From positions 129,546 to 193,545 of the forward strand of contig OZ007016.1 of NCBI GenBank assembly GCA_963931445.1: 64,000 nucleotides of DNA, written 5' to 3'. The translations under genes and the position numbers were made by a program. Within the stretch, counting starts at the first letter, position 1. Every line of letters starts with the position of its first letter. The stretch is from an uncultured Clostridia bacterium. Lineage in GTDB: Bacteria; Bacillota; Clostridia; TANB77; CAG-508. Of this stretch, positions 2,500-40,580 are shown one piece after another. A model generated the notes under the pieces. That model searched no databases. It was not told where the DNA came from and saw only the letters and a list, made by a program, of their open reading frames with translations.

Positions 2500-2668
2500 A
2501 CTAGTCTTTTTTTATTATTGTATAGGAAAAATCGACTTTTTACTTGATATTTCAGTATCTTTAACGATTTTTTCTATACAACAAGGTTAAGTTTCCTTGG
2601 GCTGTGCATATTTGCGAAGCAAAATGCTACAAAAGGCAAAGCCACTTTTCTTATTCAATAATTTAATT
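2500..2668 (-). repeat. structured intergenic repeat, copy A (full length, reverse orientation relative to copy D)
   Basis: Shares the blocks ttgtatagg-aaaaatcgac...gtcgattttt-cctatacaa, aaccttgttgtatag, ccaaggaaacttaacc and the hairpin gcattttgcttcgcaaatatgc with copies at 10790, 19125 and 40434. Confidence 0.7.
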
Positions 2669-2672
2669 CTTC

Positions 2673-3503
2673 TTATACAAATAATTTATAAATTTCATTT
2701 TTGGGTACATTTTTATTTTTAGCTATTTGTTTTATTATATCTTTTTTTTCCATCCCTTGAGATTTATAAAATTCATATTGTTCTTTTATAGATTTATTTA
2801 ATATTTCTTCTTTCTCTTCTCTTTGATTAAAATTCATATCTAATAAAATAATATATTCACCTTTTATTTTTTCTTCTTTGTTTAATTTTTCAATTAAATT
2901 ATAAATATTATTTCTTTCGAATTTTTCATGAATTTTTGTAAGTTCTTTTGCTATTACACAATTCACATTACCTACGCTTTCTAGGATATCTTCTAATGTT
3001 TTAATAAGCTTATGTGGTGCTTCATATAATATAATAGTTTTATCTTCATTTTTTATTCTTTCTAATATATTTTTTCTATTTTTTTTGTTTAGTGGTAAAA
3101 AACCATAAAACGCAAATTCTTTAGTGTTTAAACCAGATGAAATTAAAGCATTTATCAATGCACATGCACCTGGTATTGGAATAATTTCTATGTTTTGTTT
3201 AATTGCTTGTTTTACAACTTCTTCTCCTGGATCAGATATTCCTGGAGTTCCAGCATCTGTAACAATAGCAATATCTTGCCCTTCTAATAATTTATTAATT
3301 AAAATATTTACTTTTACTTCTTCATTATGCCTGTGATAACTTATTAATGGCTTACTTATTTCATAATAATTTAATAATTTTAATGTATGTCTTGTATCTT
3401 CTGCTGCAATTAAATCTACTTGTTTTAATATATTAATTGCTCTAAAAGTAATATCTTCTAAATTTCCTATTGGTGTTGCTACTAAGTATAATTTACCTAA
3501 CAT
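2673..3503 (-). CDS. rsmI: 16S rRNA (cytidine1402-2'-O)-methyltransferase RsmI (YabC-like tetrapyrrole methylase fold)
   Basis: N-terminus MLGKLYLVATPIGNLEDITFRAINILKQVDLIAAEDTRHT is the RsmI signature. Confidence 0.85.
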   Translation of the reverse strand: MLGKLYLVATPIGNLEDITFRAINILKQVDLIAAEDTRHTLKLLNYYEISKPLISYHRHNEEVKVNILINKLLEGQDIAIVTDAGTPGISDPGEEVVKQAIKQNIEIIPIPGACALINALISSGLNTKEFAFYGFLPLNKKNRKNILERIKNEDKTIILYEAPHKLIKTLEDILESVGNVNCVIAKELTKIHEKFERNNIYNLIEKLNKEEKIKGEYIILLDMNFNQREEKEEILNKSIKEQYEFYKSQGMEKKDIIKQIAKNKNVPKNEIYKLFV

Positions 3504-3514
3504 TTATTTTCTCC

Positions 3515-4412: not shown

Positions 4413-5300
4413 GTGATAATTTTGAAAAAGGAAACTATAAAAACAGAAATAAAAGTTAAAAATAACTTAGTTAGGATTATTAGAATTGATAATGTTGACT
4501 ACATATCTTTGACAGATTTAGCTAAATATCAAAATGCAGATGACCCATCAGGTGTTATAAGAAATTGGATGTCAAACAAAAATTCTTTTGAATTCTATAA
4601 CCTTTGGGAGGAACTGCACAATGAAAATTTTAATTCCGTGGAATCTCACAGAATTAAAATTAATGAAGTTGGTTATAATCGTTTTACAATGACACCAAAT
4701 CGATGGAAAAAGGACTTTAATGCTATAGGAATAATTCCAAGTAGTGGAAAATATAGTGCTGGAACATTTGCTCATCCAGATATTGCTTTTGAATTTGCTA
4801 GTTGGCTTAATACAGAATTTAAACTTTATTTAATTACGGAATTTGAAAGATTAAAACAAAATGAAGGCTATCAAAATAAAGTAGAATGGTCTGTAAGAAG
4901 AGAATTAGCAAAAACTAATTATAAAATACATACTAATAGTATAAAAGAAAATTTAGTTCCAACTTTAACTGAAAAACAAAAACAATATATCTATGCAAAT
5001 GAAGCTGATTTATTAAATGTTGCACTATTTGGCAAAACAGCTAAAGAATGGAAAGATGAAAACTCCAATTTAGATGGAAATATGAGAGATTATGCTAATA
5101 TACTTCAATTAGTAATTTTAACTAATCTAGAAAATTTGAATGCAGAAATGATAAATCAGGGAATCTGTCAAAGTAAAAGATTAGAGAGATTAAATAAAAT
5201 AGCAAAAAAACAATATGAAATTTTACAAAATAGTAAAGGTATAAAAGAATTTGCAAATTTAGATAAGAAAGGTATTTCGCCAAGTATGCCTCCAAAGTAA
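4413..5300 (+). CDS. KilA-N domain protein (phage/mobile-element DNA-binding family). Start uncertain: GTG at 4413 or TTG at 4422.
   Basis: N-terminal region (LVRIIRIDNVDYISLTDLAKY...NWMSNKNSFEF) matches the KilA-N fold. Not part of the conserved origin gene set. Confidence 0.6.
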   Translation: MIILKKETIKTEIKVKNNLVRIIRIDNVDYISLTDLAKYQNADDPSGVIRNWMSNKNSFEFYNLWEELHNENFNSVESHRIKINEVGYNRFTMTPNRWKKDFNAIGIIPSSGKYSAGTFAHPDIAFEFASWLNTEFKLYLITEFERLKQNEGYQNKVEWSVRRELAKTNYKIHTNSIKENLVPTLTEKQKQYIYANEADLLNVALFGKTAKEWKDENSNLDGNMRDYANILQLVILTNLENLNAEMINQGICQSKRLERLNKIAKKQYEILQNSKGIKEFANLDKKGISPSMPPK

Positions 5301-5380
5301 ATGCGAATTTTAAAATTTATAAATATTTTCCTTTAACTATTTTTCTTATTATGACATACTATATTATAAAGGTGATTGTA

Positions 5381-6115: not shown

Positions 6116-6393
6116 AACATTCCTCCCATTCTTTTTTATTAATTCATAATTATTATAGACAAGTACTTTTTAGAACTATTTTTTTAATTTAATAAAATAA
6201 ATGAATTTATGGTCACTTTATTCTTATCTATTTTTAATACTATTTTTCTTTTGTATTTTCTGCTGGAAAGCTCATTTTACCTATATTTTCCATTTGACAA
6301 ATTACTATTTTCCGTATACAATTAAGAATGTATTATTAGATTTAAACATATTATTTTTATAATATGTTCTTAAATTTGAAAGGAAGAAATATA

Positions 6394-9300
6394 ATGAGCA
6401 ATTTATTACATATTGGATTAGATGTTGGTTCTACTACCGTAAAAATAGTTGTTATGGATAGTGAACTAAATACTATATATAGAAATTATCAAAGACATTT
6501 TTCAGATACTAAGAATACAGTTTGTAATGTATTAGAAGATTTGGCAGAAAAATACCCAAATTTTGAATTTACAATAGCTCTTACTGGTTCTGGTGCTATG
6601 TCTGCTGCAAAATTTTTGGATTTACCTTTTATTCAAGAAGTAGTTTCTTGCAAAAGAGCAGTAGAAAAATATATTCCTAAAACAGATGTAGTTATTGAAC
6701 TAGGTGGTGAAGATGCAAAAATAATTTATTTTGATAAATCTATTGAACAAAGAATGAATGGAACTTGTGCTGGCGGTACAGGTGCATTTATAGACCAAAT
6801 GGCTTCACTTTTAAATACAGATCCTACTGGTTTAAATGAGCTTGCTAAAAACTATAAAATGATATACCCTATAGCTTCTCGTTGTGGTGTATTTGCTAAA
6901 ACTGATATACAACCACTTTTAAATGAAGGAGCAGCTAAAGAAGATATTGCTGTATCTATTTTTCAAGCTGTTGTAAATCAAACTATTAGTGGACTTGCTT
7001 GTGGAAGACCAATTAGAGGAAATGTTGCATTTTTGGGTGGACCCCTTAATTATTTATCAGAATTAAGAAATAGATTTATAGAAACTCTAAAATTAAAAGA
7101 TGATCAGATAATTCTTCCAGAAGAAGCTCACCTTTTAGTTGCTAAGGGAGCTGCATTAGATTCTATAGATTCACATTCTATAACAGTAGAAAAATTAAAA
7201 AGTAAAATTGAAGTTTTAAAAGTCTCTCATGATGATACTTCAAATCCTTTAAGTCCATTATTTTCAATAGATGCAGATTATGAAGAATTTAAAAACAGAC
7301 ATAATAAAGATACTGTTGAAAAAAGAGATTTGTCTACTTTTGAAGGAGATTGCTATGTAGGAATAGATGCTGGTTCTACAACTACAAAATTAACTTTAAT
7401 TGATAGTGATGGAAAACTTTTATATTCACTTTATGGAAGTAATGAAGGAAATCCTCTTCAAAGTGTTATAAAAGCTCTTAAAAAATTATATTCTGTACTT
7501 CCAGAAAAAGCAGCAATTAGATATAGTGGTGTTACTGGTTATGGTGAAAAACTAATACAAACTGCTTTAAATGTAGATTTAAACGAAATTGAGACTATTG
7601 CACATTATACAGCTGCTAAAAAATTTATGCCAAATGTTACTAGTATTGTAGATATTGGTGGTCAAGATATGAAATACATAAAAATGAAAAATGGAGCAAT
7701 AGATAATATAATGCTTAATGAAGCTTGTTCATCAGGTTGTGGATCTTTTATTGAAACTTTTGCTAAAAGCTTAAATCTCTCAATAGAAGAGTTTGTAAAA
7801 TCTGCAATAGAAGCAAGAAGACCCGTAGATTTGGGTTCAAGATGTACAGTATTTATGAATTCTAAAATTAAACAAGCTCAAAAAGAAGGATATTCTGTAG
7901 GAGATATATCAGCAGGACTTTCTTATTCTGTAATTAAAAATGCAATTCAAAAAGTTATGAAAGTGAGAGATGTAAAAAAATTAGGTGCACATATAGTTGT
8001 ACAAGGTGGTACTTTCTATAATGATGCTGTACTTCGTGCATTTGAATTAATTGTTGGAAGAAATGTTGTAAGACCAGATATTGCAGGCCTTATGGGTGCT
8101 TATGGTGTTGCACTTTTAGCTAAAGAACAATATGAAGCAAATTTAGATATGGAGTATAAATCAACTATTACTAAACTCGAGGATTTAGATAACTTAAAAA
8201 TAGATATTTCTCATATTCGTTGTAATGGTTGTGAAAATCATTGCTTGCTTACTATTAATAAATTCAGTAATGGCACAAAATATATTTCTGGAAATCGTTG
8301 TGAAAAAGGTGCTGGAATTGTAGGTGGTGTAAACGAGCTCCCAAATTTAATAAAATATAAATATGAAAGAATTTTTGGTTATACTCCATTAGAAGAAAAA
8401 GATGCTCCAAGAGGTACTATTGGAATTCCTAGAGTCTTAAATATGTATGAAGATTATCCTTTTTGGTTTACATTTTTAACTAATCTAGGTTTTAGGGTAA
8501 TTCTCTCTGAAAAAAGTAATAGAAAAACTTATGAAAAAGGTATGGAATCTATGCCTTCTGAATCAGTTTGTTTTCCTGCTAAATTATCACATGGTCATAT
8601 AATTGGATTAATTAATAAAGGAATTAAAACTATATTCTACCCTTGTATGCCTTATTCTAGGAAGGAGTATAAAAAAGCTGATAATCACTATAATTGTCCT
8701 ATAGTTATATCTTATTCAGAAGTTTTAAAAAATAATGTAGAAGAAATAAAAGAAAAAAATATAAAATTTTTAAATCCTTTTTTACCTTTTGATGCTAAAA
8801 ATCTAGCAAAAACTATATTAGAGTTGCCAGAATTTAAGGAATACAATTTCACAAAGAAAGAATTAATGGATGCTGCAAAAAAAGCTGAGGAAGAATATCA
8901 AAACTGCAAAAATGATATTCATAAAAAAGGTCAAGAAACTCTTGAATATATAGAAAAAAACAATTTAAAAGGAATAGTCTTAGCAGGTCGTCCATACCAT
9001 GTGGATCCAGAAGTAAATCATGGAATAGATACTTTAATTACAAGTTTGGGCTTATGTGTTCTTACTGAAGATAGTATTTCTAATCAAACAGAAGTTAAAC
9101 GCCCAATAAGAGTTGTTGACCAGTGGGTTTTTCATGCAAGGCTTTATGCTGCTGCAGACTTTGTAGGAAAACATGATAATTTAGAATTAGTTCAATTAAA
9201 TTCTTTTGGTTGTGGTGTAGATGCAGTTACAACTGATCAGGTAGAAGAAATTTTATCAAGTTTTGGAAAAATGTACACATTAATAAAAATAGATGAAATA

Positions 9301-10716
9301 AATAATTTAGGCGCAGTAAGAATAAGAATTAGATCTCTTTTGGCAAGTATGAATAAGCGTCTTGCTAATAAAGAAAATCTAAAGGGCGATGGAAATTACG
9401 AAGTAACTAAAAAAATATTTACAAAAGATATGAAAAATGATTACACTATACTTATACCTCAAATGGCACCAATACATTTTGAATTATTAGAAGCAGCTGT
9501 TCGTTCTTCTGGATATAAAGTTGAATTATTAAGAGAATGCACAGAACATACAGTAGAAACTGGATTAAAATATGTAAATAATGATGCATGTTATCCATCA
9601 ATATTAGTAACTGGACAAATGATTGAAGCATTACAATCTGGAAAATATGATTTAAATAAAACAGCTTTAATAATGTCTCAAACAGGTGGAGGATGTAGAG
9701 CTACAAATTATATAGGATTTATTCGTAAAGCATTAAAAGATGCTGGATTTGAAAATATTCCTGTAATATCTTTTAATGTAGTTGGAATGGAAAAAATGCC
9801 TGGATTTAAAATAACTCTTCCTTTAATTGAAAGGTTATTAAAAATGGTAGTATATGCAGATTTATTGCAAAAAATGCTTACTAAAAACAGAGCTTATGAA
9901 GTTAATAAAGGAGAAACTCAAGCATTATTTGATTCATGGATGGAAAGATGCAAAAAATTATTAGAAAAATCAACAATGCAACAATTTAAACAAAGTATTT
10001 ATGACATAGTTAATGATTTTGAAAAAATAGAATTAGATACATCTATAGAAAAGCCTAAAGTTGGTATTGTTGGTGAAGTATTAATAAAATACCATCCTTT
10101 TGGAAATAATTTTATTGCAAATAAATTAGAAGAAGAAGGTGCAGAAGTTATTCTTCCTGATTTTATGGGATTTGTAAAATTTATAGCCACACATAAAATA
10201 ACCTTTAATCAGTTGATAAAGGTAGATAAATTTAAAGCTAAATTATTTAAAACTGCAATTAAATTAATAGATATATTAGAAAAAGATGCCAAAATAGCCT
10301 TATCGAATTCTAAAAAAGGTTATTTACCAACATGTGATATATGGGAATTAGAAAATAAAGTAAAAAATATACTTTCTATAGGAAATCAAACTGGAGAAGG
10401 ATGGTTTTTAACTGCAGAAATGATAGAATATATAGAGCATGGTATACCAAACATAGCTTGTGTACAACCTTTTGCTTGTCTTCCAAACCATGTTGTTGGA
10501 AAAGGCGTAATTAAAACAATTAGAGATTTATATCCTGAAGCTAATATATCACCTATAGATTATGATCCCGGTGCAAGTGAAGCAAATCAAACTAATAGAA
10601 TAAAATTGCTTATGACAGTAGCTAAGGATAATTTAAAGAAAAAAGAATTAGAAAAAACTGCTATAAATAACGAAAATATCAAAGGAAAAAATAAAACAAA
10701 AATAAAACAAAAATAA
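6394..10716 (+). CDS. fused 2-hydroxyacyl-CoA dehydratase activase-like protein: two BadF/BadG/BcrA/BcrD actin-fold ATPase domains followed by a DUF2229/HgdB-like dehydratase domain. The tool ORF opens at 6364; start taken at 6394 (MSNLLHIGLD), which follows SD gaaaggaag.
   Basis: Two ASKHA P-loops (LHIGLDVGSTTVKIVVMD and CYVGIDAGSTTTKLTLID). The Cys-rich C-terminal region is typical of the ~1400-aa CoA-substrate-specific enzyme activase fusions found in Clostridia. Confidence 0.7.
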   Translation: MSNLLHIGLDVGSTTVKIVVMDSELNTIYRNYQRHFSDTKNTVCNVLEDLAEKYPNFEFTIALTGSGAMSAAKFLDLPFIQEVVSCKRAVEKYIPKTDVVIELGGEDAKIIYFDKSIEQRMNGTCAGGTGAFIDQMASLLNTDPTGLNELAKNYKMIYPIASRCGVFAKTDIQPLLNEGAAKEDIAVSIFQAVVNQTISGLACGRPIRGNVAFLGGPLNYLSELRNRFIETLKLKDDQIILPEEAHLLVAKGAALDSIDSHSITVEKLKSKIEVLKVSHDDTSNPLSPLFSIDADYEEFKNRHNKDTVEKRDLSTFEGDCYVGIDAGSTTTKLTLIDSDGKLLYSLYGSNEGNPLQSVIKALKKLYSVLPEKAAIRYSGVTGYGEKLIQTALNVDLNEIETIAHYTAAKKFMPNVTSIVDIGGQDMKYIKMKNGAIDNIMLNEACSSGCGSFIETFAKSLNLSIEEFVKSAIEARRPVDLGSRCTVFMNSKIKQAQKEGYSVGDISAGLSYSVIKNAIQKVMKVRDVKKLGAHIVVQGGTFYNDAVLRAFELIVGRNVVRPDIAGLMGAYGVALLAKEQYEANLDMEYKSTITKLEDLDNLKIDISHIRCNGCENHCLLTINKFSNGTKYISGNRCEKGAGIVGGVNELPNLIKYKYERIFGYTPLEEKDAPRGTIGIPRVLNMYEDYPFWFTFLTNLGFRVILSEKSNRKTYEKGMESMPSESVCFPAKLSHGHIIGLINKGIKTIFYPCMPYSRKEYKKADNHYNCPIVISYSEVLKNNVEEIKEKNIKFLNPFLPFDAKNLAKTILELPEFKEYNFTKKELMDAAKKAEEEYQNCKNDIHKKGQETLEYIEKNNLKGIVLAGRPYHVDPEVNHGIDTLITSLGLCVLTEDSISNQTEVKRPIRVVDQWVFHARLYAAADFVGKHDNLELVQLNSFGCGVDAVTTDQVEEILSSFGKMYTLIKIDEINNLGAVRIRIRSLLASMNKRLANKENLKGDGNYEVTKKIFTKDMKNDYTILIPQMAPIHFELLEAAVRSSGYKVELLRECTEHTVETGLKYVNNDACYPSILVTGQMIEALQSGKYDLNKTALIMSQTGGGCRATNYIGFIRKALKDAGFENIPVISFNVVGMEKMPGFKITLPLIERLLKMVVYADLLQKMLTKNRAYEVNKGETQALFDSWMERCKKLLEKSTMQQFKQSIYDIVNDFEKIELDTSIEKPKVGIVGEVLIKYHPFGNNFIANKLEEEGAEVILPDFMGFVKFIATHKITFNQLIKVDKFKAKLFKTAIKLIDILEKDAKIALSNSKKGYLPTCDIWELENKVKNILSIGNQTGEGWFLTAEMIEYIEHGIPNIACVQPFACLPNHVVGKGVIKTIRDLYPEANISPIDYDPGASEANQTNRIKLLMTVAKDNLKKKELEKTAINNENIKGKNKTKIKQK

Positions 10717-10772: not shown

Positions 10773-10789
10773 TTTTTTTAGTCATAGAA

Positions 10790-10868
10790 GAAAAGTGTCT
10801 TCTCCAAATGAGCGTTTTGCTTTGCAAATACGCTCGTCCCAAGGAAACTTAACCTTGTTGTATAGAAA
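10790..10868 (+). repeat. structured intergenic repeat, copy B (partial: left half only)
   Basis: Contains gagcgttttgctttgcaaatacgctc + ccaaggaaacttaaccttgttgtataga, then stops at the boundary of the AT-rich macro-repeat. Confidence 0.65.
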
Positions 10869-10899
10869 AAATAAATACAAAATTAATTTTAAAAATAAA

Positions 10900-11835
10900 A
10901 AATTTAAAACTTCCTATTTTTTTATAAATTTTTATAAATATTTTTTAATTTATTTTTTAATTTTTTTTTAATTTTTTATTATATTCATTTTTACATTTAT
11001 TTTTTATTATTATTAATATAATTTAAAATTAATTATTTTTTATTATTTATTTTTTTATAAATATTTTTTAATTTTTTTATTCTATTTAATTAATTATATG
11101 TTTTTGTTTTAACAATTTTTCTTATTAATTTTTTTAACAGTTTTAAAACTATAACTTTCTTTATTTTAGCCTTAGGTTTGTCATTTAGGTAATTGTGTTA
11201 TTCTTTATATAAATATTTGCCATTTTAATTTTCAGTTGCTTTTCATAAACTTTATTAAAGTTATTTGGGTATTATCTTTATGTTTACTATGCTTCTTTTC
11301 AAAAATATTTTTGTTTATTTTTTTATTTATCAGTAATCCGTTATATTATTTTTAATAATATTTACTTTTTTTATTTATTTTATAAACAAAAGTATTCACA
11401 TTTTTGTTTACTTTTAATTATTTTTTTATTTATTTTTCTTAACTATTTTTCTTCTGTATATTAAATTTTAAGATTTTTATGCCTTTTTGACAATTTCTTA
11501 TTATTTTTTCTATTAGTTTTTTAAGATTTTAATATTTTATTTTTTACTATTTTTTATGGAACATATTTTTTATTTTTTAATTTTTTATTTATTAATTTAT
11601 TTATTTTTATTATTAATAATATATTTTAAATTAATTATTTATTTTATAATATTTTTTTAATAATTATTTTTATAAATATTTTTTAATTTATTTTTTAATT
11701 TTTTTTTAATTTTTTATTATATTTATTTTTACATTTATTTTTTATTATTATTAATATAATTTAAAATTAATTATTTTTTATTATTTATTTTTTTATAAAT
11801 ATTTTTTAATTTTTTTATTTTAATAAGTTTATATA
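10900..11835. repeat. extremely AT-rich noncoding macro-repeat, block R1 (~1.3 copies of a ~730-bp unit)
   Basis: The same long sequence, for example ...ttctatttaattaattatatgtttttgttttaacaatttttcttattaa...gccttaggtttgtcatttag..., recurs at 15100-16570. Internal recurrence period is about 748 bp. Confidence 0.85.
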
Positions 11836-11913
11836 ATTATATAAATTATTATTTTTTACTTGTTTTTTTTTATTATTCACGATATAATGTTATTTACTAA
11901 TAGGAGGTATAAC

Positions 11914-12468
11914 ATGCTACTAGGATTAGCTGGTGTTTCAGGAGTAGGAAAATCATTTTTTAAAGATAAACTAGTCGAAAAATTAAATTTTGAAAAGATT
12001 AAAATTATAACAACTCGTAAAATAAGAAATACTGAAAAAAATAATGAAGATAAAGTTTTTGTTACAAATAAAGATTTAGCCAATCTAAGAAATTCAAACA
12101 AACTTGCTTATGAATTTAATATGCTCGGAAATATTTATGCATATACAAATGAAGAACTTTTTTCTAATAAAAATACAGTTTTTGAATTACATTACAATAC
12201 AATATATGATTTTAAAAAAATCTGTCCAAATCTTTGTTCAATATATATTATGCCAAATAATATAAAAATACCAAAAGAACAAATAAAAAAAAGGCATTTA
12301 GATCCGGATACAGAAAAAAAACGATTACTAGAAATTGATGAACATTATAACAATATACTTTCAAATGAAAATTTAAGAAATCAATTTAATTATTTTTTTA
12401 AAAATAATTATGATAAAGAATCTGAAAATAAATTTATAAATTTAATTAAAGAATTAATAAATAACTAG
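11914..12468 (+). CDS. P-loop NMP-kinase-like protein (guanylate-kinase-like). The tool ORF opens at 11860; start taken at the ATG after SD taggagg.
   Basis: Walker A GVSGVGKS. A TTR(K) motif about 30 residues downstream (IITTRKIRNTE) resembles the guanylate kinase family. Confidence 0.45.
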   Translation: MLLGLAGVSGVGKSFFKDKLVEKLNFEKIKIITTRKIRNTEKNNEDKVFVTNKDLANLRNSNKLAYEFNMLGNIYAYTNEELFSNKNTVFELHYNTIYDFKKICPNLCSIYIMPNNIKIPKEQIKKRHLDPDTEKKRLLEIDEHYNNILSNENLRNQFNYFFKNNYDKESENKFINLIKELINN

Positions 12469-13836: not shown

Positions 13837-15065
13837 GTATATGTGTCAATGATGTGAAACAAACTATTATAAAAAAATTGTAGTATATTGAATCTACTTA
13901 AGAAAAATATAATAAATTAACATTCCGCTTGGCTCCATGCATGACTTTATTACATTTTTCTTAAGTTTATAAATTTTATGCTACTGCTAATTCTAGTTCT
14001 TCCCTTTTTTCTTTTGGTGTTAAATATCCTAATACTGCCATTGGTATATTGTTTGATCTTTTTAAATATGCTTTTCCTTGCTTTATTAAGTCTTCTAAGC
14101 TATAGAATTTTAAATAACTATAAAATCTTTCATTATCATTTCTATGGCTTCTCTCTACTTTTCCATTATGTTCTGGTGTCCTTGGTCTTATCTTGTAATG
14201 CCTTATTTCTAATTTCTTCAATAATGTATCCATTGGATGTTCTTTCTTTACTTTTGCTTGATTGTAGCTAAATTCTGTTCCATTATCTGTTTGTATTGTC
14301 TTTGGTTTATAGCCAAAGTACTCTACGCATCTTTTTACAAAATCTACTGTATTTGTTGGAGTTAACTCTTCATACCACCATAAAAATCTTTCTCTACTTG
14401 CTTCATCTATGCATGTATATTGATAATATTGTTTATCTTCTGGCAATTTTACTTTGCATTCATTTGGTACATATTTTGCATCTATTTGCCATTTTTCTCC
14501 TATATTTTTTGGCGTTTCATATTTTTTATTATGTTTCTTTTTGGATGTATTTTTTATATTCATTCCCTTGTAAAACTTTATATTTAGCCTTTTCATTACT
14601 CTATACAATGATGTTATTTTCCTTGTATATCCTTTTTCTCTCTTTAGCTTCGCCCATAATTCGCATAGCGTTATTCTTGGGTTTCTTCTTACATAATTTC
14701 TTATCCAACGTATTTCTTGATTTGTGTGCGATTTTGGATGGCGTGTTTTGGGTTTATGGCTCTTATCTTCTAGGCTTTCTTTTGTTCCATTGTACTTTTT
14801 TAACCATCTCCATAATGAAATTCTTGATATATGATATTTTCTACATGTATACTCTATATCTCCGTTATTCATATATGTTTTTACTGCATTTTCTTTTGTT
14901 TTTAAATCATGTGGTAAATATCTCTTGGTATTTTTTGAATTTTGTGTTATACTATCCATAAGTGATTCAAGTCCTTTCGTATAATTTTTATTTTCAACAA
15001 TTCAATTATACTACTTGAATCACTTTTTTTCTACTTCTTTTGTTTCACATCAATTGTAACACTAC
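13837..15065 (-). mobile_element. insertion sequence (~1229 bp) with ~28-bp imperfect terminal inverted repeats ending in ...gatgtgaaac, flanked by perfect 27-bp direct repeats (13810-13836 and 15066-15092)
   Basis: Left end gtatatgtgtcaatgatgtgaaac; right end gtttcacatcaattgtaacactac. Direct repeat aatttgttacaaatattatacaatttt lies on both sides. Contains a single transposase ORF. Confidence 0.75.
13976..14959 (-). CDS. DDE transposase with an integrase (rve) catalytic core and an N-terminal HTH (IS481/IS3-superfamily-like)
   Basis: Catalytic residues in WQIDAKYV, IQTDNGTEF and HNGKVERSHR. 327 aa. Confidence 0.7.
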   Translation of the reverse strand: MDSITQNSKNTKRYLPHDLKTKENAVKTYMNNGDIEYTCRKYHISRISLWRWLKKYNGTKESLEDKSHKPKTRHPKSHTNQEIRWIRNYVRRNPRITLCELWAKLKREKGYTRKITSLYRVMKRLNIKFYKGMNIKNTSKKKHNKKYETPKNIGEKWQIDAKYVPNECKVKLPEDKQYYQYTCIDEASRERFLWWYEELTPTNTVDFVKRCVEYFGYKPKTIQTDNGTEFSYNQAKVKKEHPMDTLLKKLEIRHYKIRPRTPEHNGKVERSHRNDNERFYSYLKFYSLEDLIKQGKAYLKRSNNIPMAVLGYLTPKEKREELELAVA

Positions 15066-15099
15066 AATTTGTTACAAATATTATACAATTTTATAATTT

Positions 15100-16800
15100 T
15101 CTTTTTTATCTTTTATAATGTAAAAATAATATAATTATTTTATTTATTAATTTAATTATTTATTTTATAATATTTTTTTTATAATTATTTTTATAAATAT
15201 TTTTTAATTTTTTTTTAATTTTTTTTTAATTTTTTATTATATTTATTTTTACATTTATTTTTTATTATTATTAATATAATTTAAAATTAATTATTTTTTA
15301 TTATTTATTTTTTTATAAATATTTTTTAATTTTTTTATTCTATTTAATTAATTATATGTTTTTGTTTTAACAATTTTTCTTATTAATTTTTTTCACAGTT
15401 TTAAAAATATAACTTTCTTTATTTTAGCCTTAGGTTTGTCATTTAAGCAATTGTGTTATTCTTTATATAAATATTTGCCATTTTAATTTTCAGTTGCTTT
15501 TCATAAACTTTATTAAAGTTATTTGATTATTATCTTTATGTTTACTATGCTTCTTTTCAAAAAAATTTTTGTTTATTTTTTTATTTATCACTAATCCGTT
15601 ATATTATTTTTAATAATATTTACTTTTTTTATTTATTTTATAAACAAAAGTATTCACATTTTTGTTTACTTTTAATTATTTTTTTATTTATTTTTCTTAA
15701 CTATTTTTCTTCTGTATATTAAATTTTAAGATTTTTATGCCTTTTTGACAATTTCTTATTATTTTTTCTATTAGTTTTTTAAGATTTTAATATTTTATTT
15801 TTTACTATTTTTTATGAAACATATTTTTTTATATTTTAATTATTTATTTATTAATTTATTTATTTTTATTATTAATAATATATTTTAAATTAATTATTTA
15901 TTTTATAATATTTTTTTTATAATTATTTTTATAAATATTTTTTAATTTTTTTTTAATTTTTTATTATATTTATTTTTACATTTATTTTTTATTATTATTA
16001 ATATAATTTAAAATTAATTATTTTTTATTATTTATTTTTTTATAAATATTTTTTAATTTTTTTATTCTATTTAATTAATTATATGTTTTTGTTTTAACAA
16101 TTTTTCTTATTAATTTTTTTCACAGTTTTAAAAATATAACTTTCCTTATTTTAGCCTTAGGTTTGTCATTTAAGCAATTGTGTTATTCTTTATATAAATA
16201 TTTGCCATTTTAATTTTCAGTTACTTTTCATAAACTTTATTAAAGTTATTTGATTATTATCTTTATGTTTACTATGCTTCTTTTCAAAAAAATTTTTGTT
16301 TATTTTTTTATTTATCACTAATCCGTTATATTATTTTTAATAATATTTACTTTTTTTATTTATTTTATGTTTCTAAATTTTCATATTTTTGTTTACTTTT
16401 TATTATTTTTTTATTTGTTTTTCTTAACTATTTTAATCCTTAATATTAATTTAAATTTTTTTCATACCTTTTTGACAATTTTTTATTATTTTTTCTATTA
16501 GTTTTTTAAGATTTTAATATTTTATTTTTTAGTATTTTTTATGGAACATATTTTTTTATATTTTAATTATTTATTTATTAAATTAATTATTTTTATTTAA
16601 AATTATATTATTAAATTAAATATTAATTTAATAATATAATTTTAATAATTATTTCAATAAATATTTATTAATTTATTTTTTAATTTTTATTTACTATTAA
16701 TTATTTATTATTTATTTATTACATTTATTTATTATTTATTTTATAATGTACAAAAAAATAATTTTTTATATATTAATATTTTGCATATATAAAAAATTAT
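15100..16800. repeat. extremely AT-rich noncoding macro-repeat, block R2 (two full ~727-bp units at 15125-16570 plus a diverged partial unit)
   Basis: The marker gccattttaattttcag recurs at about 15477 and about 16204, giving a period of 727 bp. Nearly identical to block R1. Confidence 0.85.
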
Positions 16801-16807
16801 TTTTTTA

Positions 16808-19033: not shown

Positions 19034-19124
19034 TTTATGCCTCCTAAAAATAACATATTAATAATATAAAATAATTTATAATATGTCAATAATATTTTTA
19101 TTTTTATTTTTATTTTTATTTTTT

Positions 19125-30786: not shown

Positions 30787-32706
<1,920 letters not shown>

Positions 32707-33881: not shown

Positions 33882-35696
33882 ATGAATAAAAAAAATAAAC
33901 AAAAATTAAATTTTTTAGAAGGAACAGTTTCTAATAATGATTTTTTAGCACCATCATATATCAATTTATCTAATCCAAAATATATAGAAATAGATAATGT
34001 TTATTTTTCATCAATTTTAATAATAAATTATTACAGAGAACAAAATGAATTGATATTAAAATCACTTATAGATACCAATATAGATATAAATATTTCTATT
34101 TTTTATGAAAAACAAGATAATTATAAAGCAATAAGAGAATTAACATATCATATAGGAAATGTTGGTGCAGATTTAAAAACAAGTAATCAAAATAAACAAA
34201 ATATAGATATTGTAGCTTTTACATATAATGATGCTAAATATATTAGAAAAGAATTACAAATAAATAATGAGGATTTATATTATTTATACATTTATATTAA
34301 TACATACTCACAAGATTTAAAGGAATTAGAAAATACACTAAACAAAATTGAAGGAATATTAGAAGGTAGAGGACTAAATATTAGAAGAGCATATTTTAGA
34401 CAAGAGCAAGCATATAAAGCTTGTTTGCCATTAATGGAAAATAATAAAATTTTAAAAGAAGTTGCTAAAAGGAATGTATTAACAAGCGGACTTATTTCCA
34501 CATATCCTTTTAGTTCTTCAGCAATTTTTGATGAAAATGGAATATTTAGTGGAATAAATATATACAATAATTCATTAATATTTATTGATAGATACAATAC
34601 TCAAAAATACAAAAATGCAAATATGTGTATTTTTGGTACATCAGGTGCTGGAAAATCTTTTTATACAAAATTATTGATTTTAAGATATAGATTATTAGGA
34701 ATAGAGCAATATATTATAGATCCAGAAAGAGAGTATAACAATTTATGTAAAAATTTAAATGGAGCACTTTTAAAAATAGGCCCTAGTTCTAATACTTATA
34801 TAAATATATTTGATATAAGAAAAGAAAGTTTAGAAGATGAAGAACAAGGTTATTTAGCAAATAAAATTAGTAAATTAATGGGCTTTTTTAATCTTATTTT
34901 TGGAAAAATAAATGAAGAAGAAAGGGCTATTTTAGAAGAAAAAATAATAGAATTATATGAAATTAAAAATATTAACTTTGATGATAAAAGTCTATATAAA
35001 GAGGTAAATTATAGTACAGGAATAGAACTTATTTTTAAAGAAAGTAGAGATATGCCAATTTTAGAAGACTTTTATAATATTTTAGATAAAGATGAAAAAA
35101 CAAAAATATTTAAAATAAAATTAATACCATTTATAAAAGGGTCACTAAAATTTTTTAATAATTACACAAATATAGAATTAAATAATAAATTAATTGTTGC
35201 TGATGTATATGAATTAGGAGAAGAAAATTTAAAATATGGCATGTATTTATTTACGGATTTATTTTGGGACAAAATAAAAAAAGATAGAAAAATAAAAAAA
35301 GCTATTTATTTAGATGAAATATGGAGACTAATTGGCGTAACTTCGAATAAAGATGTTGCAAGTTTTATATATAAAATATTTAAAACTATTAGAAAATATG
35401 GTGGTAGTAGTGTTGCAATAACGCAGGATATATCTGATATTTTCAGTTTAGAAAATGGAAGTTATGGAAAAAGTATTTTAAATAATTCTAGTATAAAAAC
35501 TTTTTTTGCATTAGAAGAAGAAAATATAAAAATATTGGAAAAATACACTAATTTATCAGAAAAAGAGAAAATAGAAATCAAATCTTTAAAAAGAGGAGAG
35601 TGTCTGACATTTGTAGGAGATGAACATATTTTAAATAGAATTTGTGTAGCAGATTTTGAAAGAGAAATAATAGAAAATAAAAATAATAGTATATAA
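33882..35696 (+). CDS. VirB4/TrsE-like conjugative transfer ATPase, C-terminal two-thirds (604 aa)
   Basis: Walker A GTSGAGKS, IIDPEREY and the Walker B region AIYLDEIW. Confidence 0.7.
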   Translation: MNKKNKQKLNFLEGTVSNNDFLAPSYINLSNPKYIEIDNVYFSSILIINYYREQNELILKSLIDTNIDINISIFYEKQDNYKAIRELTYHIGNVGADLKTSNQNKQNIDIVAFTYNDAKYIRKELQINNEDLYYLYIYINTYSQDLKELENTLNKIEGILEGRGLNIRRAYFRQEQAYKACLPLMENNKILKEVAKRNVLTSGLISTYPFSSSAIFDENGIFSGINIYNNSLIFIDRYNTQKYKNANMCIFGTSGAGKSFYTKLLILRYRLLGIEQYIIDPEREYNNLCKNLNGALLKIGPSSNTYINIFDIRKESLEDEEQGYLANKISKLMGFFNLIFGKINEEERAILEEKIIELYEIKNINFDDKSLYKEVNYSTGIELIFKESRDMPILEDFYNILDKDEKTKIFKIKLIPFIKGSLKFFNNYTNIELNNKLIVADVYELGEENLKYGMYLFTDLFWDKIKKDRKIKKAIYLDEIWRLIGVTSNKDVASFIYKIFKTIRKYGGSSVAITQDISDIFSLENGSYGKSILNNSSIKTFFALEEENIKILEKYTNLSEKEKIEIKSLKRGECLTFVGDEHILNRICVADFEREIIENKNNSI

Positions 35697-35807
35697 ATGT
35701 TAATTAAAAAATTTTATTTTTTAATATAATGGAAGTTAATATAATATAATACAGAATAATGTCAAATATAAAAAATATTTTACATTAAAAGAAAGGGTGA
35801 AATTAAT

Positions 35808-37067
35808 ATAATAAAAATAATAACAGCAATAGGTGATGAGAATTTAAATAATAATTTAAAAAAACAAAAAAATATAGAAATTATTTTAAAAGATATTCCA
35901 TATAAAGAAGGAATAATTGAAGTATTAGAAAAATATTCTGAAGTTGATTATATAATATTAAATTATATGTTACAGGGAGAAATTGAAATTGAAGAATTAA
36001 TAAAAAAAATAAATTTAATTAATAAAAATATTAAAGTTATTTTAATTATAAATAAAATAGATGAAAAAATGGAAAAAATATTATACGAAAATAAAATATA
36101 TAAAATAATAAATAATAATCAAATAGAAGAATTAATTGAGATATTAAATTATAATAATGAAAACTTAAAAGAAGTAAATTTTATGAATAATATTCATGAA
36201 AATAATTTGAAAAAACAAAAAAATAAAAAATTAACAAAGAAAAATAAATATATAATTAAAAAAAATATTTTAAAAGATAAAATAATAATAGTAAAAACAA
36301 AAATAAAAAATATATTAATAAATAATATTAGAGAAAAAAATAAATTAAAAGATATTTTAAATAAAAAATTAAACAATAAAACCATTTGCATTACAGGCCC
36401 CCCATCTGTTGGAAAAAGTATAATATCTATAAATTTAGCAAAAATAAATATTTATTCAAAAAATAAAATTTTAATAGTTGATCTAGATTTTATAAATAAT
36501 TCTGTTAATACCATTCTGGGTATAAAAAATATTCCAAAAAATAAAAAAGAAATAAATAGTTTTATTAATATAATAAAAATAAATAAAAAAATTGATTTAT
36601 TATATTTAATAAAAACAAAAGAAAATAATAATTTAAAAATTAAAGATTTAATAAACATTATAAATGATTTAAAAAATGTATACGAATATATTATCATTGA
36701 TACCAATTCAATAGAATTAATTTATTATATGAAATATATTATACAAATAAGTGATTTTTGTTTATTTATTTCAGATGTTAATTTATTAGAGATAAATAAA
36801 TCTATTAAATTATTAGATAAATATATAAATTTTTTTAATATAAATAAAAATAAAATTAATATTATTTTTAATAAATATAATAAAGAAGCAATTAATTATA
36901 ATTTATTAAAAATAATATTTAGCGAATTTAAAATAATTGGAAAAATTAATTATAATGAAAAATATAACAAATTAATTAATAAAAATAATAAACTTAATTT
37001 AATAAATAAAAAAATAAGAAAAGAATATTTAAAAATTAATAATAAAATAAAAAAATTAAATATATAA
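35808..37067 (+). CDS. CpaE/ParA/MinD-like P-loop ATPase with a receiver-like N-terminal domain. Extremely Lys/Asn/Ile-rich. The tool ORF opens at ATG 35967. The in-frame ORF opens at 35772, with ATA at 35808 lying 7 nt after SD aagggtga.
   Basis: Upstream in-frame translation IIKIITAIGDENL...ILKDIPYKEGIIEVLEKYSEVDYIILNYMLQGE has no stop. P-loop ICITGPPSVGKSIISINLA and IIDTNS. Confidence 0.4.
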   Translation: MIKIITAIGDENLNNNLKKQKNIEIILKDIPYKEGIIEVLEKYSEVDYIILNYMLQGEIEIEELIKKINLINKNIKVILIINKIDEKMEKILYENKIYKIINNNQIEELIEILNYNNENLKEVNFMNNIHENNLKKQKNKKLTKKNKYIIKKNILKDKIIIVKTKIKNILINNIREKNKLKDILNKKLNNKTICITGPPSVGKSIISINLAKINIYSKNKILIVDLDFINNSVNTILGIKNIPKNKKEINSFINIIKINKKIDLLYLIKTKENNNLKIKDLINIINDLKNVYEYIIIDTNSIELIYYMKYIIQISDFCLFISDVNLLEINKSIKLLDKYINFFNINKNKINIIFNKYNKEAINYNLLKIIFSEFKIIGKINYNEKYNKLINKNNKLNLINKKIRKEYLKINNKIKKLNI

Positions 37068-37137
37068 AAAATATTTAGTATATTTAACTATTCTATATAA
37101 AATAAATAAATTTAATATAAAAGGAAGGATGATAAAT

Positions 37138-37857
37138 ATGGATCTAGAAAATATAGTTAATTTAAATAAAAATATAAATGAAAATTCCATAAGTCAGGAG
37201 CAAAATAATTTTTTAGAATCTAATTTAGGAAAAATAATAAATTCTGCTTTAGATGTTGGTTTAAGAATGATACTTCCAAATTTTGTAGAAGAAAGTGTTG
37301 TGGAAATTAAGGATACATTTTTAAAAAATGGTTTTAAAGAAGGTATTGGTACAGCAATAAATAATGCAATTAATTTAGGTAAAAGTATTTTGGGAATATT
37401 TACAGGAGAATTTGATAATATTTCTCAAGCAAGAGATGCAATTAAAAGTGGAGGAATAATAGATGGAATATCAAATTTATTAGATTCTATATTACAAAAA
37501 ACAAGTTCATCAGGGTTAATAACTAATAATGTTGCTAGAATGATAAGTAGTGGAAAAAATGCAATATTAGATAGTATAAGCAATAAAATAGAAAACGAGT
37601 TTACAAGTCAGATAGATGGAATTGAAAAATTGGCAAAATATGAAAGCAATTGGAAAGAATATTTTAATAACAAAGACTTTATTGGAATGGAAAGAGAGTA
37701 TGAAAAAATTCAAGAAAAATTAAAGGAAATAATGCCATTAGAAAATACAATAAAACAAGCTAGAGTAATAGAAAATTTACATACTTTAATTAAGAATAAT
37801 AATCAAAATTTTAACTTAACAAAAGAACAAGAAGAATTAGCTAATTTATTAGTATGA
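37138..37857 (+). CDS. hypothetical protein (mobile-element associated)
   Basis: An ORF following SD aaggaagga. No recognisable family. Confidence 0.4.
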   Translation: MDLENIVNLNKNINENSISQEQNNFLESNLGKIINSALDVGLRMILPNFVEESVVEIKDTFLKNGFKEGIGTAINNAINLGKSILGIFTGEFDNISQARDAIKSGGIIDGISNLLDSILQKTSSSGLITNNVARMISSGKNAILDSISNKIENEFTSQIDGIEKLAKYESNWKEYFNNKDFIGMEREYEKIQEKLKEIMPLENTIKQARVIENLHTLIKNNNQNFNLTKEQEELANLLV

Positions 37858-37994
37858 TAGATATTTAATATTAGCTAAAATATATGCTGGCAATTGTATA
37901 AAAATATTGATTTTTACTTGCAAATTTTTGTGTATTTATAGTATAATACAGAGGTAAAATAAATTACGGAAATAGAAAGGACGGAATAATAAAA

Positions 37995-40433
37995 ATGGAA
38001 GAAAATGAAGGAAAAATTATAGAAAGAAATATTGAAACAGAAATGAAAACTTCATATATTGATTATGCTATGAGTGTTATTGTTTCAAGAGCACTTCCAG
38101 ATGTAAGAGATGGTTTGAAACCAGTACATAGAAGAATTTTATATGCTATGTATGAAGATGGAATAACATCAGATAAACCATTCAGAAAAAGTGCTAATAC
38201 TGTTGGTTCAGTACTTGGTAGATATCATCCACATGGAGATGCCTCTGTTTATGATGCTATGGTAAGAATGGCACAAGATTTTTCACTTAGATATCCACTA
38301 ATAGATGGACATGGAAATTTTGGATCAGTTGATGGGGATTCAGCTGCAGCCATGAGGTATACTGAAGCAAGAATGTCAAAAATATCTGAAACAATGCTTG
38401 AAGATATTGAAAAAAATACAGTTGATTTTATGCCAAACTATGATGATAGATTACAAGAACCACAAGTATTACCATCTAAAATACCAACTCTTTTAATAAA
38501 TGGTTCATCAGGTATTGCAGTTGGTATGGCAACAAATATACCACCACATAATTTAACTGAAGTTATAAATGGTATAATAAAAATTATTGATGATGACAAT
38601 GTGACAGACGAGCAATTGATGGGAATTATAAAAGGTCCAGATTTCCCAACAGAAGGATTAATATTAGGAAGAGATGGAATTAAGGAAGCTTATACCACAG
38701 GAAAAGGAAAAATAATAATGCGAGCTGAAGCAGAAATAGAAGAGATGAGTGGAAATAAGCAAAGAATAATTGTAAAATCATTACCATATCAAGTGAATAA
38801 AGCCAAATTAGTTGAAAACATAGCTAATTTAGTAAAAGAGAAAAAAGTGGAAGGAATTTCTGAAGTTAGAGATGAATCTGATAGAGAAGAAAAGGTAAGA
38901 GTGGTAATAGAATTAAAAAGAGATGTAAATGCACAAGTTATATTAAATCAATTATTTAAATTTACTCAAATGCAAGAAACCTTTGGTGTTATAATGCTTG
39001 CATTAGTAAATGGAGAACCTAAAATATTAACATTAAGACAATGCTTAGATAACTATATAGATCATAGAAAAAGTGTAATTCTTCGTAGAACACAATTTGA
39101 TTTAGACAAAGCATTAGCTAGAGCTCACATATTAGAAGGATTAAAAATTGCTTTAGACAATATAGACGAAGTTATTGAAATTATAAGAAATTCTTATGAT
39201 GATGCAAAAGAAAGATTAATGGAAAGATTTGGACTTTCCGATATACAAGCTCAAGCAATACTAGATATGAGGTTAAAAACTTTATCTGGTTTGCAAAGAG
39301 AAAAAATAGAAGAAGAATATGCAGAATTAATGAAATTAATTGAGCACTTAAGAGCAATACTTGCAAGTGATAAGTTAGTATATGATATTATTAAAGAAGA
39401 ATTATTAGAGATTAAAGATAAATATGGTGATGAAAGAAAAACAAAAATAGTTGCAGCAGAAGGAGAATTTGAAGTTGAAGATTTGATAAAAGAAGAACAA
39501 TGTGTTGTTGCTTTAACTCATTTTGGTTATATAAAAAGAATGCCTATAGATACATATAAAAGTCAAAAAAGAGGAGGAAAAGGAATAACAGGAATAGCAA
39601 CTAGAGAAGAAGATTTTGTAAAACAAATTTTTACAGCATCAACTCATGATACTATATTATTCTTTAGTAATAAAGGAAAAGTTTATAGACTAAGAGGTTA
39701 TGAAATACCAGAAGCTGGTAGAACAGCTAAAGGAACAGCTATTGTAAATCTATTGATGTTAGACGGAGGAGAGAAAATTTCAGCAGTTATACCTATTGCA
39801 AATTTTGCAGATGGCAAATATTTATTAATGGGAACTAAAAATGGAATTATAAAAAAGACAGCATTAAATGAATATATGTCAGTTAGAAAATCTGGTTTAA
39901 TAGGAATAACATTAAAAGAAAATGATGAATTAATAGATGTAAGATTAACTGATGGAGAAGATAATGTAGTTCTTGTTACATATAAGGGTATGTGTATAAC
40001 ATTTGATGAAAAAGATGTAAGACCAATGGGAAGAGTATCACAAGGTGTAATAGGAATTAAGTTAGATGAAGATGACTTAGTTATAGGAATGGAATCAATA
40101 ATACAAGGAAGTAAAGCTACACTTCTTGCAATAACTGAAAATGGATTTGGAAAAAGAACTGAACTTGATGAATATAGAGTTCAAACTAGAGGAGGAAAAG
40201 GAGTAATAACATATAAAGTAACTCCTAAAACTGGTAATTTAGTTGGAATAAGAATTGCTACTGATAATGAAGATGTAATGTTAATTACTGATACAGGAAC
40301 AATTATAAGGCTTAATGTATCAGATATTAGTATTTTAGGAAGATCAACACAAGGTGTAACATTAATGAGAACTAATGAAGGAAAAGTAGTTAGTATAGAA
40401 ACAATTCCAATGGATGAAAAATCAGAAGAATAA
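37995..40433 (+). CDS. gyrA: DNA gyrase subunit A
   Basis: [10 protein letters not shown] active-site region, 812 aa. Confidence 0.97.
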
Positions 40434-40580
40434 GAAAAGTGGCTTCGCTACATGAGCGTTTTGCTTCGCAAATACGCTCAGACCAAGGAAACTTAACCTT
40501 GTTGTATAGGAAAAATTGTCAAGAATACTGAGATATCAAGTGAAAAGTCGATTTTACCTATACAATAAAAAACAAAAAAG
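40434..40580 (+). repeat. structured intergenic repeat, copy D (full length)
   Basis: gagcgttttgcttcgcaaatacgctc hairpin + ccaaggaaacttaaccttgttgtatagg + aaaaattgtcaag...actgagatatcaag...aaaagtcgatttta-cctatacaa. Confidence 0.7.

Follow-up and report, generated by a model that had tools for sequence, protein, structure and literature searches.

A family of small hairpin-rich intergenic repeats, probably mobile, in uncultured gut Clostridia

Copies of the repeat in the window

The window analysed here, a stretch of 64,000 nucleotides from an uncultured Clostridia bacterium (GenBank assembly GCA_963931445.1, contig OZ007016.1, positions 129,546 to 193,545; coordinates below are those of the window), carries the genes gyrA, rsmG and soj and, beside these and other genes, copies of a short structured repeat. 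These repeats hold up on analysis, as members of a large family of small, non-coding mobile elements that has not been described so far. The 18-mer CTTAACCTTGTTNTATAG occurs five times in the window with at most two mismatches, against 0.05 occurrences expected. A covariance model (A6/R1), built from 16 canonical family members with a hand-specified structure, was used to search the window with filters off and returned exactly five significant copies; one 45-nt fragment is present besides, and the density is about one copy per 11 kb. The scores were 92-117 bits for copy D, 82-105 for copy A, 72 for copy B, 50-57 for copy C1 and 39 for copy C2, and the E-values of the window copies reach 1e-8 to 1e-28.

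Copy D (40431-40568, plus strand) is a full-length type I copy of 138 nt that scores 117 bits, and its first three bases, TAA, are the stop codon of gyrA. Its parts are hairpin P1 (40439-40451), GTGGC-TTC-GCTAC; P2 (40454-40479), GAGCGTTTTGC-TTC-GCAAATACGCTC, with 11 bp and one bulged T; the block P3 (40484-40501), CAAGG-AAACTTAA-CCTTG, conserved in sequence and putatively paired; and the long hairpin P4 (40502-40565), TTGTATAGGAAAAAT...ATTTTACCTATACAA, the loop of which holds an optional insert of 29 nt (...AATACTGAGATATCAAG...). Nine nucleotides 3' of the copy lies a hairpin followed by a T-run (GTGAAAATTTTTAATTTTCAC TTTTTTT). Copy A (2515-2653, minus strand) is likewise full-length type I, with 139 nt, the 29-nt P4 insert and 105 bits, and is 87% identical to copy D. 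The copy follows a TP_methylase (RsmI-like) gene (2673-3503) at a distance of 19 nt downstream and is convergent with an AbrB/MazE-like gene; its P2 reads TAGCATTTTGC-TTC-GCAAATATGCAC.

The other copies are more diverse. Copy B (10787-10883, plus strand; 72 bits) is a type I element that starts with GAAGAAAAG past the terminator of the open reading frame (ORF) 6364-10716; P1 to P3 are intact and P4 has collapsed to TTGTAT-11 nt-ATACAA. The spacer between rsmG and soj is occupied by copy C1 (19124-19282, minus strand), a full-length element in which an alternative, type II 5' module (TAAGAAAGGCATTTCGC...GCGAAATACATGTCACTCGCTTCGCTCGGAC) precedes the shared P3 and P4 with the 29-nt insert, and, head to head with it, by copy C2 (19318-19473, plus strand; 39 bits), a degenerate copy of type I in which many pairs are broken and P4 holds a different insert. 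A near-consensus promoter-like site (19061-19089, minus strand; TTGACA-17-TATTAT, matching at 11 of 12 positions) falls within the opening codons of soj as this ORF was called (TTG start at 19089). The true start of soj is probably further downstream than called, and C1 and C2 are situated past the stop codon of rsmG and ahead of the soj promoter. The 45-nt fragment (5263-5307, plus strand), found by repeat search, is a piece of a type II 5' module and ends a KilA-N ORF (4413-5300) by providing its final 12 codons together with the stop, so that repeat DNA has been recruited into coding sequence. The window copies are also found in independent assemblies, long-read contigs among them, and copy D is present in all strains with an identical GyrA (loci L108-L113), which are thus uninformative on its boundaries.

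A preliminary description of this DNA had listed four copies. All four of its loci hold the repeat, yet the count rises to five copies and a fragment; the supposed composite at 19125-19450 consists of the two separate elements C1 and C2; its placement in the rsmG-soj spacer was correct (Pfam: GidB, ParA, ParB). The hairpin quoted for D and A exists as described, with 11 bp and a TTC loop, plus a 1-nt bulge. The replacement of a G-C pair in D by A-T in A is real as well, and in the family as a whole this pair is AU in 49 copies, GC in 23 and CG in 2. Copy B had been taken as simply truncated, when in fact its long hairpin has collapsed, and three copies had been placed between convergent genes, where only A and D are so placed, B and C lying between co-directional genes. 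The second long hairpin with the loop motif ATACTGA(G/A)ATATCAAG occurs in A, C1 and D, but the motif is not a conserved feature of the family, being the optional insert mentioned above.

Family, anatomy and pairing

Further copies were collected by scanning a genome collection with a 19-base seed, and the family-wide counts given here refer to the matches listed. At least 106 stretches contain the seed. About 59 species-level metagenome-assembled genomes (MAGs) are represented among the matches listed, nearly all of them from uncultured gut Clostridia sampled from human, rabbit, chicken and other animals, and one is Candidatus Merdicola faecigallinarum. Two archaeal seed matches were dismissed as chance. 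When relatives were scanned with the covariance model, as the preliminary description had proposed, 94 matches with E<1e-12 were obtained in 760 kb of loci. Similarity is 0.888 between copies within a MAG versus 0.840 between MAGs, and 20 of 61 copies have their nearest neighbour in their own MAG.

The view that the repeat belongs to no named family was borne out by the databases. Rfam was searched under gathering as well as E-value thresholds with the window, with copy D and one canonical copy, and with six loci. Only tRNAs (in the window and the six loci) passed the gathering threshold, all else being noise; the best scores below it were 21 bits against a threshold of 55 and 14.5 against 37. 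BLAST searches against plasmids and deposited GenBank phage genomes gave no match to the repeat, a scan of viral contigs with the seed gave 0 matches, and literature searches with the core sequences as strings retrieved no paper that contains them. A scan with the 5' module found one phage contig (L128; IMG/VR UViG_3300012344_000297; ORFs of 138, 186 and 474 aa) that carries a related variant at 418-600, which suggests that phages of these hosts harbour related elements as well.

The canonical unit is 107 nt long (full range about 90-186 nt), with a GC content of about 35%. It begins with R-TAAGAAAAG, followed by P1 (GTGGC-TTC-GCCAC), AT, P2 (GTGCATTTTGC-TTC-GCAAATATGCAC), AGCC, P3 (CAAGG-AAACTTAA-CCTTG), the 16-bp P4 (TTGTATAGCAAAAATC-TTC-GATTTTTCCTATACAA) and TAA, past which the sequence is A-rich; the conserved block between P2 and P4 reads YTAACCTTGTTGTATAG. 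Among 69 distinct complete copies, 42 have the canonical length of 106-110 nt, six have an expanded P1 (+23 nt), seven carry the 29-nt insert in the P4 loop as do A, C1 and D, nine carry larger inserts and five are internally deleted. The element is thus modular: P1 can be expanded, the P4 loop takes inserts of 29-78 nt and there are at least two alternative 5' modules. Type II was found in C1 and in loci L074, L084 and L092, and type III in locus L020 (1904-2043) and in the phage contig. In type III TAAGAAAAGTGGCTTCGCCAC pairs with a ACTTTTCTT that comes after it, and the internal module ahead of a P4-like hairpin is a different one. Every variant begins with TAAGAAARG and closes with P4-TAA.

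At the 5' side conservation runs from position -1 (A in 70 copies, G in 11) through the invariant TAAGAAAAG, and at the 3' side an invariant CAATAA is followed by a variable (A/G)AAA(A/G)(G). The two ends resemble a 10-nt direct repeat of which only the 5' one is constant, so that a simple target duplication does not account for them. Terminal inverted repeats are absent: the consensus ends (R)TAAGAAAAGTGGC... and ...CCTATACAATAA are not reverse complements, and the inverted repeat of P4 is internal to the 3' half. Instead there is a subterminal hairpin at either end, P1 at 9 nt from the 5' end and P4 at 3 nt from the 3' end, both with a C-TTC-G loop. Exact head-to-tail tandems (...CTATACAA|TAAGAAAAG...) were found in 9 of 92 copies, and TAAGAAA comes next in 16 of 87.

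The pairing was evaluated on 94 copies aligned to the covariance model, with 500 shuffles and with slid controls. RNAalifold on a MAFFT alignment had given an implausible long-range structure, since variants of P2 shift register, and was replaced by the hand-specified structure. Of all paired cells 93.3% can indeed pair (34-47% in the slid controls), and 150 cells are changed on both sides as against 32±4.4 in the shuffles, none of which reaches the observed value. Covariation is strongest in P2, where 10 of the 11 pairs have both sides changed, followed by P1 (4 of 5) and P4 (4 of 16). The value for P3 (0 of 5) is uninformative on pairing, as its 3' arm is inside the search seed; even copies that were not selected by the seed conserve the sequence of the block TAACCTTGTTGTATA.

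The exceptions to pairing are symmetric between the strands, with 80 G·U and 73 A·C, so that the hairpins are maintained symmetrically on both strands. As RNA, the complementary strand, with GAA loops, is the more stable fold in 53 of 69 copies, and as DNA in 57 of 67. Copy D is atypical of the family in favouring the plus strand, which folds far beyond its shuffles (z=-5.96), and an argument for the RNA strand from copy D alone was dropped because the family lacks an asymmetry between G·U and A·C. The loops are uniform: the 69 distinct copies contain 88 GCTTCGC, 20 GCTTTGC and 31 TCTTCGA, and all but one of the window's five GCTTCGC heptamers are inside elements. On the complementary strand GCTTCGC reads GCGAAGC; one account of the GCGNAGC motif in DNA describes it as an "extraordinarily stable" mini-hairpin (PMC13037366). 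The preliminary description had taken the compensatory change as an argument for selection on structure. The alignments indicate that selection on pairing is right, and generally so across the family, but strong covariation does not by itself show selection on RNA here.

Insertion at stop codons and gene context

Two informative sites come from a relative (P0002, loci L121-L123) with a GyrA that is 99% identical to that of the window. Upstream of gyrA, at the stop codon of ORF 35967-37067 (TAA at 37065-37067), the window has an unoccupied target site (37061-37075, plus strand; TATA-TAA-AAAATATT) and reads ...AATTAAATATA TAA AAAATATTTAG... without an element. The same site in L121 and L122 reads ...AATTAAATATA TAA GAAAAGTGGC...CCGATACAA TAA AAATAGTTTT..., with an element exactly on the stop codon and the junctions ...ATATA TAA|GAAAAG...ATACAA TAA|AAATAG. 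With copy A of the window the inserted element shares 95.7% identity, more than the 87% between A and D, and it appears to have been copied recently from the A subfamily. Where the gyrA stop codon lies, this relative contains a 55-nt, internally deleted remnant with ATAAGAAAAG on both flanks, before the same terminator. Species with a GyrA that is 93-95% identical have no element at the gyrA stop site, copy D being absent. Further, more diverged empty sites are ATAAGAAAAG (L010 versus L011) and ATAAAAAAAG (L071 versus L016), and in four empty sites the target approximates ATAARAAAAG.

Comparison of the empty sites with the 5' end of the element shows that the insertion target is (A)TAA, in many cases the very stop codon of a gene, with an A-rich sequence behind it that mimics this 5' end, and that after insertion TAA flanks the element on both sides. 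The same mimicry explains the tandems. New copies derive from existing members of a subfamily, i.e. by copy and paste, and the elements accumulate between stop codons and terminators, form exact tandems and decay by internal deletion. Concerning a target-site duplication, for which the preliminary description had recommended a search at the copy ends, TAA (at most ATAA) is single at the empty site and double at the filled one; with the 5' TAAGAAAAG invariant in all copies and the 3' flank variable, the TAA may instead belong to the element.

In 12 of the 46 copies with a co-oriented upstream ORF, that of the window gyrA included, the TAA of the element is the stop codon of this ORF. According to a lenient heuristic of our own, 32 of 67 copies have a sense terminator within 90 nt past their 3' end (27 of them within 20 nt), versus 7 of 67 on the 5' side; a stricter search gave no terminator-like site at the window copies A, C and D on either strand. 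P1 of the complementary strand followed by TTTTCTTAT was seen only in canonical and P1-expanded copies outside the window. The orientation relative to the flanking ORFs is opposite to both in 34 cases and the same as both in 19, with 19 copies between convergent and 10 between divergent ORFs. The strand with the TTC loops runs with the majority coding strand in 39 loci and against it in 65 (GAA-loop strand 65:39, p=0.014). No promoter-like site was found inside the element at any window copy, such matches being limited to the flanks, and no conservation is seen upstream of the 5' end. Several candidate functions were discarded: a promoter within P4 (TTGTAT...TACAAT) is ruled out by its spacer of 22-24 nt, a small ORF starting at the GTG in P1 is broken in frame by the indels in P2, and no resemblance was seen to the motifs of parS, Noc-binding sites, DnaA boxes or integron attC.

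Some copies are located in 5' untranslated regions (UTRs), in loci L016 and L030. The one in L016 (6753-6866) lies in sense between a conserved TTGACA...TATTAT promoter and the ribosome-binding site, and the orthologous sites in L071 and L035 are empty. Downstream of the RsmI-like gene, two species have an element at the same site, namely copy A in the window and an element at 1549-1710 of locus L089. These are different subtypes, with different P2 and P4 inserts, and their flanks are 75-81% identical. This may be either an old insertion that was remodelled later or the repeated use of a hot spot close to a stop codon.

The surroundings of the copies were also searched for a parent element or a partner gene. 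An autonomous parent would have an ORF between its 5' and 3' modules, and no such arrangement was found in 860 kb of loci. Clustering of 718 neighbouring ORFs gave a largest protein cluster of eight members and no recurring transposase, and Pfam gave no HUH enzyme or recombinase for 20 ORFs of the window. The sole transposase in the window is a 327-aa protein with HTH and rve domains (13976-14959, minus strand), the one ORF of an IS481-like insertion sequence (13842-15063). This element has the inverted repeats TGTGTCAATGATGTGAAACAAA and TGTTACAATTGATGTGAAACAAA, is flanked on both sides by the same sequence of about 27 nt (AATTTGTTACAAATATTATACAATTTT) and adjoins two tRNA-Ser genes. It was rejected as the parent, its inverted repeats being unrelated to the ends of the repeat. 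Genes of the Rpn family (PDDEXK_2/HTH_Rpn_C, "recombination-promoting nuclease / putative transposase") recur in five loci (L017, L050, L053, L083 and L106) and also lie directly upstream of gyrA in some relatives (L124, 409-1338; L125, 373-1413; L126, 409-1338). As partners they were rejected on present evidence, since they are not adjacent to the repeats.

A few other features of the window deserve mention. Four extremely AT-rich (GC 5.5-15%), T-skewed and apparently non-coding repeats are found in 10900-12100 and 14900-16900, starting at about 10929, 11667, 15187 and 15914, with spacings of 738 and 727 nt; three of the four are 92-96% identical over 300 nt. They form two tandem pairs, which bracket a segment of about 3 kb with two kinase-like ORFs, the two tRNA-Ser genes and the IS481-like element. 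Between ORF 30793-32706, presumed to be gyrB, and gyrA there are three genes (33882-37857), an unusual break in the conserved gene order of the origin region. They encode an AAA_10/TraG-like P-loop ATPase, a CbiA/ParA-like protein of 366 aa and a protein of 239/242 aa without a significant family match (one GIY-YIG-like match was below threshold). Finally, an ORF for a weakly type IV secretion system pilin-like protein of 111 aa is found at 43966-44301.

Nature of the repeat and comparison with known systems

Taken together, the repeats very probably form a family of small non-coding, non-autonomous mobile elements of uncultured low-GC gut Clostridia, putatively moved by way of folded single-stranded DNA. 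Several traits suggest the involvement of single-stranded DNA: inverted repeats are lacking, hairpins with the same loop lie close to both ends, a target duplication is ambiguous or absent, the target resembles the end of the element, the loops are of the mini-hairpin kind and the orientation is biased. A trans-acting enzyme would recognise the hairpins as folded single-stranded DNA, and compensatory changes would thereby keep the hairpins intact. Such an enzyme could be of the HUH/Y1 type (IS200/IS605-, RAYT- or IS91-like), or another enzyme that is independent of terminal inverted repeats, and would be encoded elsewhere in the genome. The effects on the host, i.e. hairpins in 3' UTRs and donated stop codons and C-terminal codons, would then be by-products of co-transcription in 3' UTRs.

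Several observations weigh against this reading. Neither the 64-kb window nor the 860 kb of loci yielded a mobilising enzyme: approximate probes for TnpA of IS200/IS608 gave no Y1-like match with tblastn in the window and 106 loci (860 kb), and the only transposase of the window does not match the repeat. The junctions fit the TAA either as a target duplication of 3-4 bp or as part of the element. The occupancy of the RsmI-like site in two species could mean selection or an insertion hot spot and not neutral parasitism. The orientation bias is modest (63%), like that of BOX, RUP and SPRITE, and so is not diagnostic of a single-stranded DNA mechanism, and the geometry of the left end is unlike that of IS608, with the hairpin directly abutting the end. 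A bolder version, which we regard as tentative and rather doubtful, invokes a mechanism new to bacterial repeats: an enzyme, of HUH type or new, would read the GCGAAGC-type mini-hairpins on single-stranded DNA and paste the element precisely at TAA stops, guided by the similarity between the target (ATAARAAAAG) and the element end. In a related version the element would have come to serve the host as a standard 3'-UTR module between stop and terminator. Pasting of this kind, if true, would explain both the donation of stop codons and the exact tandems.

Where the preliminary description offered a candidate MITE (miniature inverted-repeat transposable element), this stands in the broad sense of a small, non-coding, high-copy element with presence/absence polymorphism, and fails in the classical sense for want of terminal inverted repeats and of a matching insertion sequence. 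A classical MITE moved by a DDE transposase, with a target-site duplication of 3 bp (TAA) or 4 bp (ATAA), is therefore unlikely, in spite of the single TAA at the empty site that is found on both sides of the inserted copy, and of an element that is small, AT-rich, non-coding and highly base-paired, with a P4 that by itself has the appearance of back-to-back inverted repeats. With TAA counted as the duplication, the termini GAAAAGTGGC... and ...CCTATACAA are not inverted repeats, no insertion sequence with matching ends was found in the window or the 860 kb of loci, and neither a 3' target flank that mimics the 5' end of the element nor exact head-to-tail tandems are typical of DDE MITEs. The similarity of the copies is not a product of chance or misassembly either. 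That explanation, which would ask for nothing beyond the low complexity of a genome with 23% GC, is already refuted and has practically no probability left, given the excess of 18-mer matches, the E-values of the window copies, their recurrence in independent assemblies and long-read contigs, and the origin of the MAGs from different studies.

Two further alternatives assign the hairpins a role in the transcript. A functional structured RNA, be it a stabiliser of 3' UTRs, a processing or protein-binding module or a family of small-RNA genes, would have its hairpins selected at the RNA level. The strong covariation in P1 and P2, the plus-strand fold of copy D, the many copies that lie between a stop codon and a terminator and hence must be co-transcribed, the site shared by two species, and the precedent of bcr1 and BOX, which are transcribed and affect expression (PMC3184786, PMC3049150), all speak in its favour. 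Yet G·U and A·C exceptions are about equally frequent, so that no strand-specific tolerance of wobble pairs is seen, the copies take both orientations to the flanking genes, no window copy has an internal promoter-like site, the sequence 5' of the element is not conserved and no protein is linked to the repeats. The density of copies, the degenerate or internally deleted ones among them (C2, B and the L121 remnant), the gain and loss between near-identical strains and the lack of an Rfam match point the same way, and we consider a functional RNA quite improbable. The structured small RNA of the preliminary description is thus not upheld as the primary nature of the repeat. Its terminator element fits weakly. 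On the complementary strand the canonical unit ends in GTGGC-GAA-GCCAC followed by TTTTCTTAT, in P1-expanded variants a long stem precedes the T-tract, and this strand is more often co-oriented with the genes, the elements being enriched at gene ends, all of which would suit a terminator or insulator cassette domesticated by the host, similar to SPRITE. No window copy, however, scores as a terminator on either strand. In the other orientation an A-run follows and a separate genuine terminator is usually present just beyond, so that the host terminator is retained rather than replaced, and some copies are in 5' UTRs; such a cassette is very unlikely. A mobile element, putatively moving as single-stranded DNA, remains the best explanation.

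Small interspersed repeats shape gene ends, operon expression and the quality of assemblies, and are almost unstudied in uncultured low-GC gut Clostridia, which are common in humans and animals. The present one rewrites gene termini, as seen from the stop codon of gyrA and the 12 codons of the KilA-N ORF, and its polymorphism between near-identical strains makes it a possible strain marker. Its lack of inverted repeats, its preference for stop codons and its loops of the mini-hairpin kind make it a clean test case for the mechanism, which could lead to the mobilising enzyme. It also calls for caution in the discovery of RNA motifs, as strong covariation occurs here without an indication of a functional RNA.

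Among known systems, the classical bacterial MITEs (Correia/NEMIS, ERIC and Nezha) are small, non-coding, strongly folded, multicopy elements in transcribed intergenic DNA. The Clostridia repeat resembles them in being small, devoid of ORFs, multicopy and polymorphic between strains, but lacks the defining terminal inverted repeats. REP/BIME-RAYT systems and the IS200/IS605-derived PATE are hairpin repeats without inverted repeats that are probably handled as single-stranded DNA, have no or ambiguous duplications, form arrays and lie near gene ends and terminators. Being hairpin-based and free of inverted repeats themselves, the Clostridia elements find their most plausible working model here, although no RAYT or TnpA gene was found adjoining any copy and the spacer at the left end of IS608 is absent. 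One account characterises REPs as GC-rich palindromes of 20-40 nt with a GTAG or CGTC head (PMC3733652). The Clostridia repeat, in contrast, is a composite of 107 nt with an AT-rich P4, and no such head is evident in the aligned copies, on which no dedicated motif search was run.

The pneumococcal repeats BOX, RUP and SPRITE are judged parasitic, are enriched downstream of genes and are slow to make new insertions, with a strand bias of 60.8-63.3% relative to the coding strand (PMC3049150). The high copy number, the downstream enrichment, a strand bias of about 60-63% and the altered gene ends are shared with the Clostridia repeat, and BOX is modular too (boxA-boxB(n)-boxC) (PMC3049150); that RUP is also 107 bp long is a coincidence. 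BOX and RUP differ in having terminal inverted repeats that match ISSpn2 or IS630-Spn1, whereas the Clostridia repeat has neither such repeats nor a candidate insertion sequence, and SPRITE is a single 18-bp stem with a U-tract as opposed to four helices. The bcr1 repeat of the Bacillus cereus group is about 155 bp long (100-155 nt), has no ORF, keeps its stem-loops by compensatory changes, varies between strains and is transcribed (PMC3184786). The likeness lies in an intergenic repeat of Firmicutes with independent stem-loops, an uneven distribution between close strains, flanking short A/T direct repeats and co-transcription (PMC3184786). Compared by description and between different host clades, bcr1 has a defined 5-bp duplication where the Clostridia repeat shares only (A)TAA, and the latter stands apart by its modularity, its exact tandems and the same C-TTC-G loop in all hairpins.

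Stop-codon targeting, target mimicry and GCGAAGC-type loops are unusual traits among known small non-autonomous interspersed repeats, and would be of even more interest if the mobilising enzyme proved to be new. In behaviour the Clostridia repeat appears closest to bcr1 and to BOX, RUP and SPRITE, while in its likely mechanism it would, by analogy, be closer to REP/RAYT or to elements derived from IS200/IS605.

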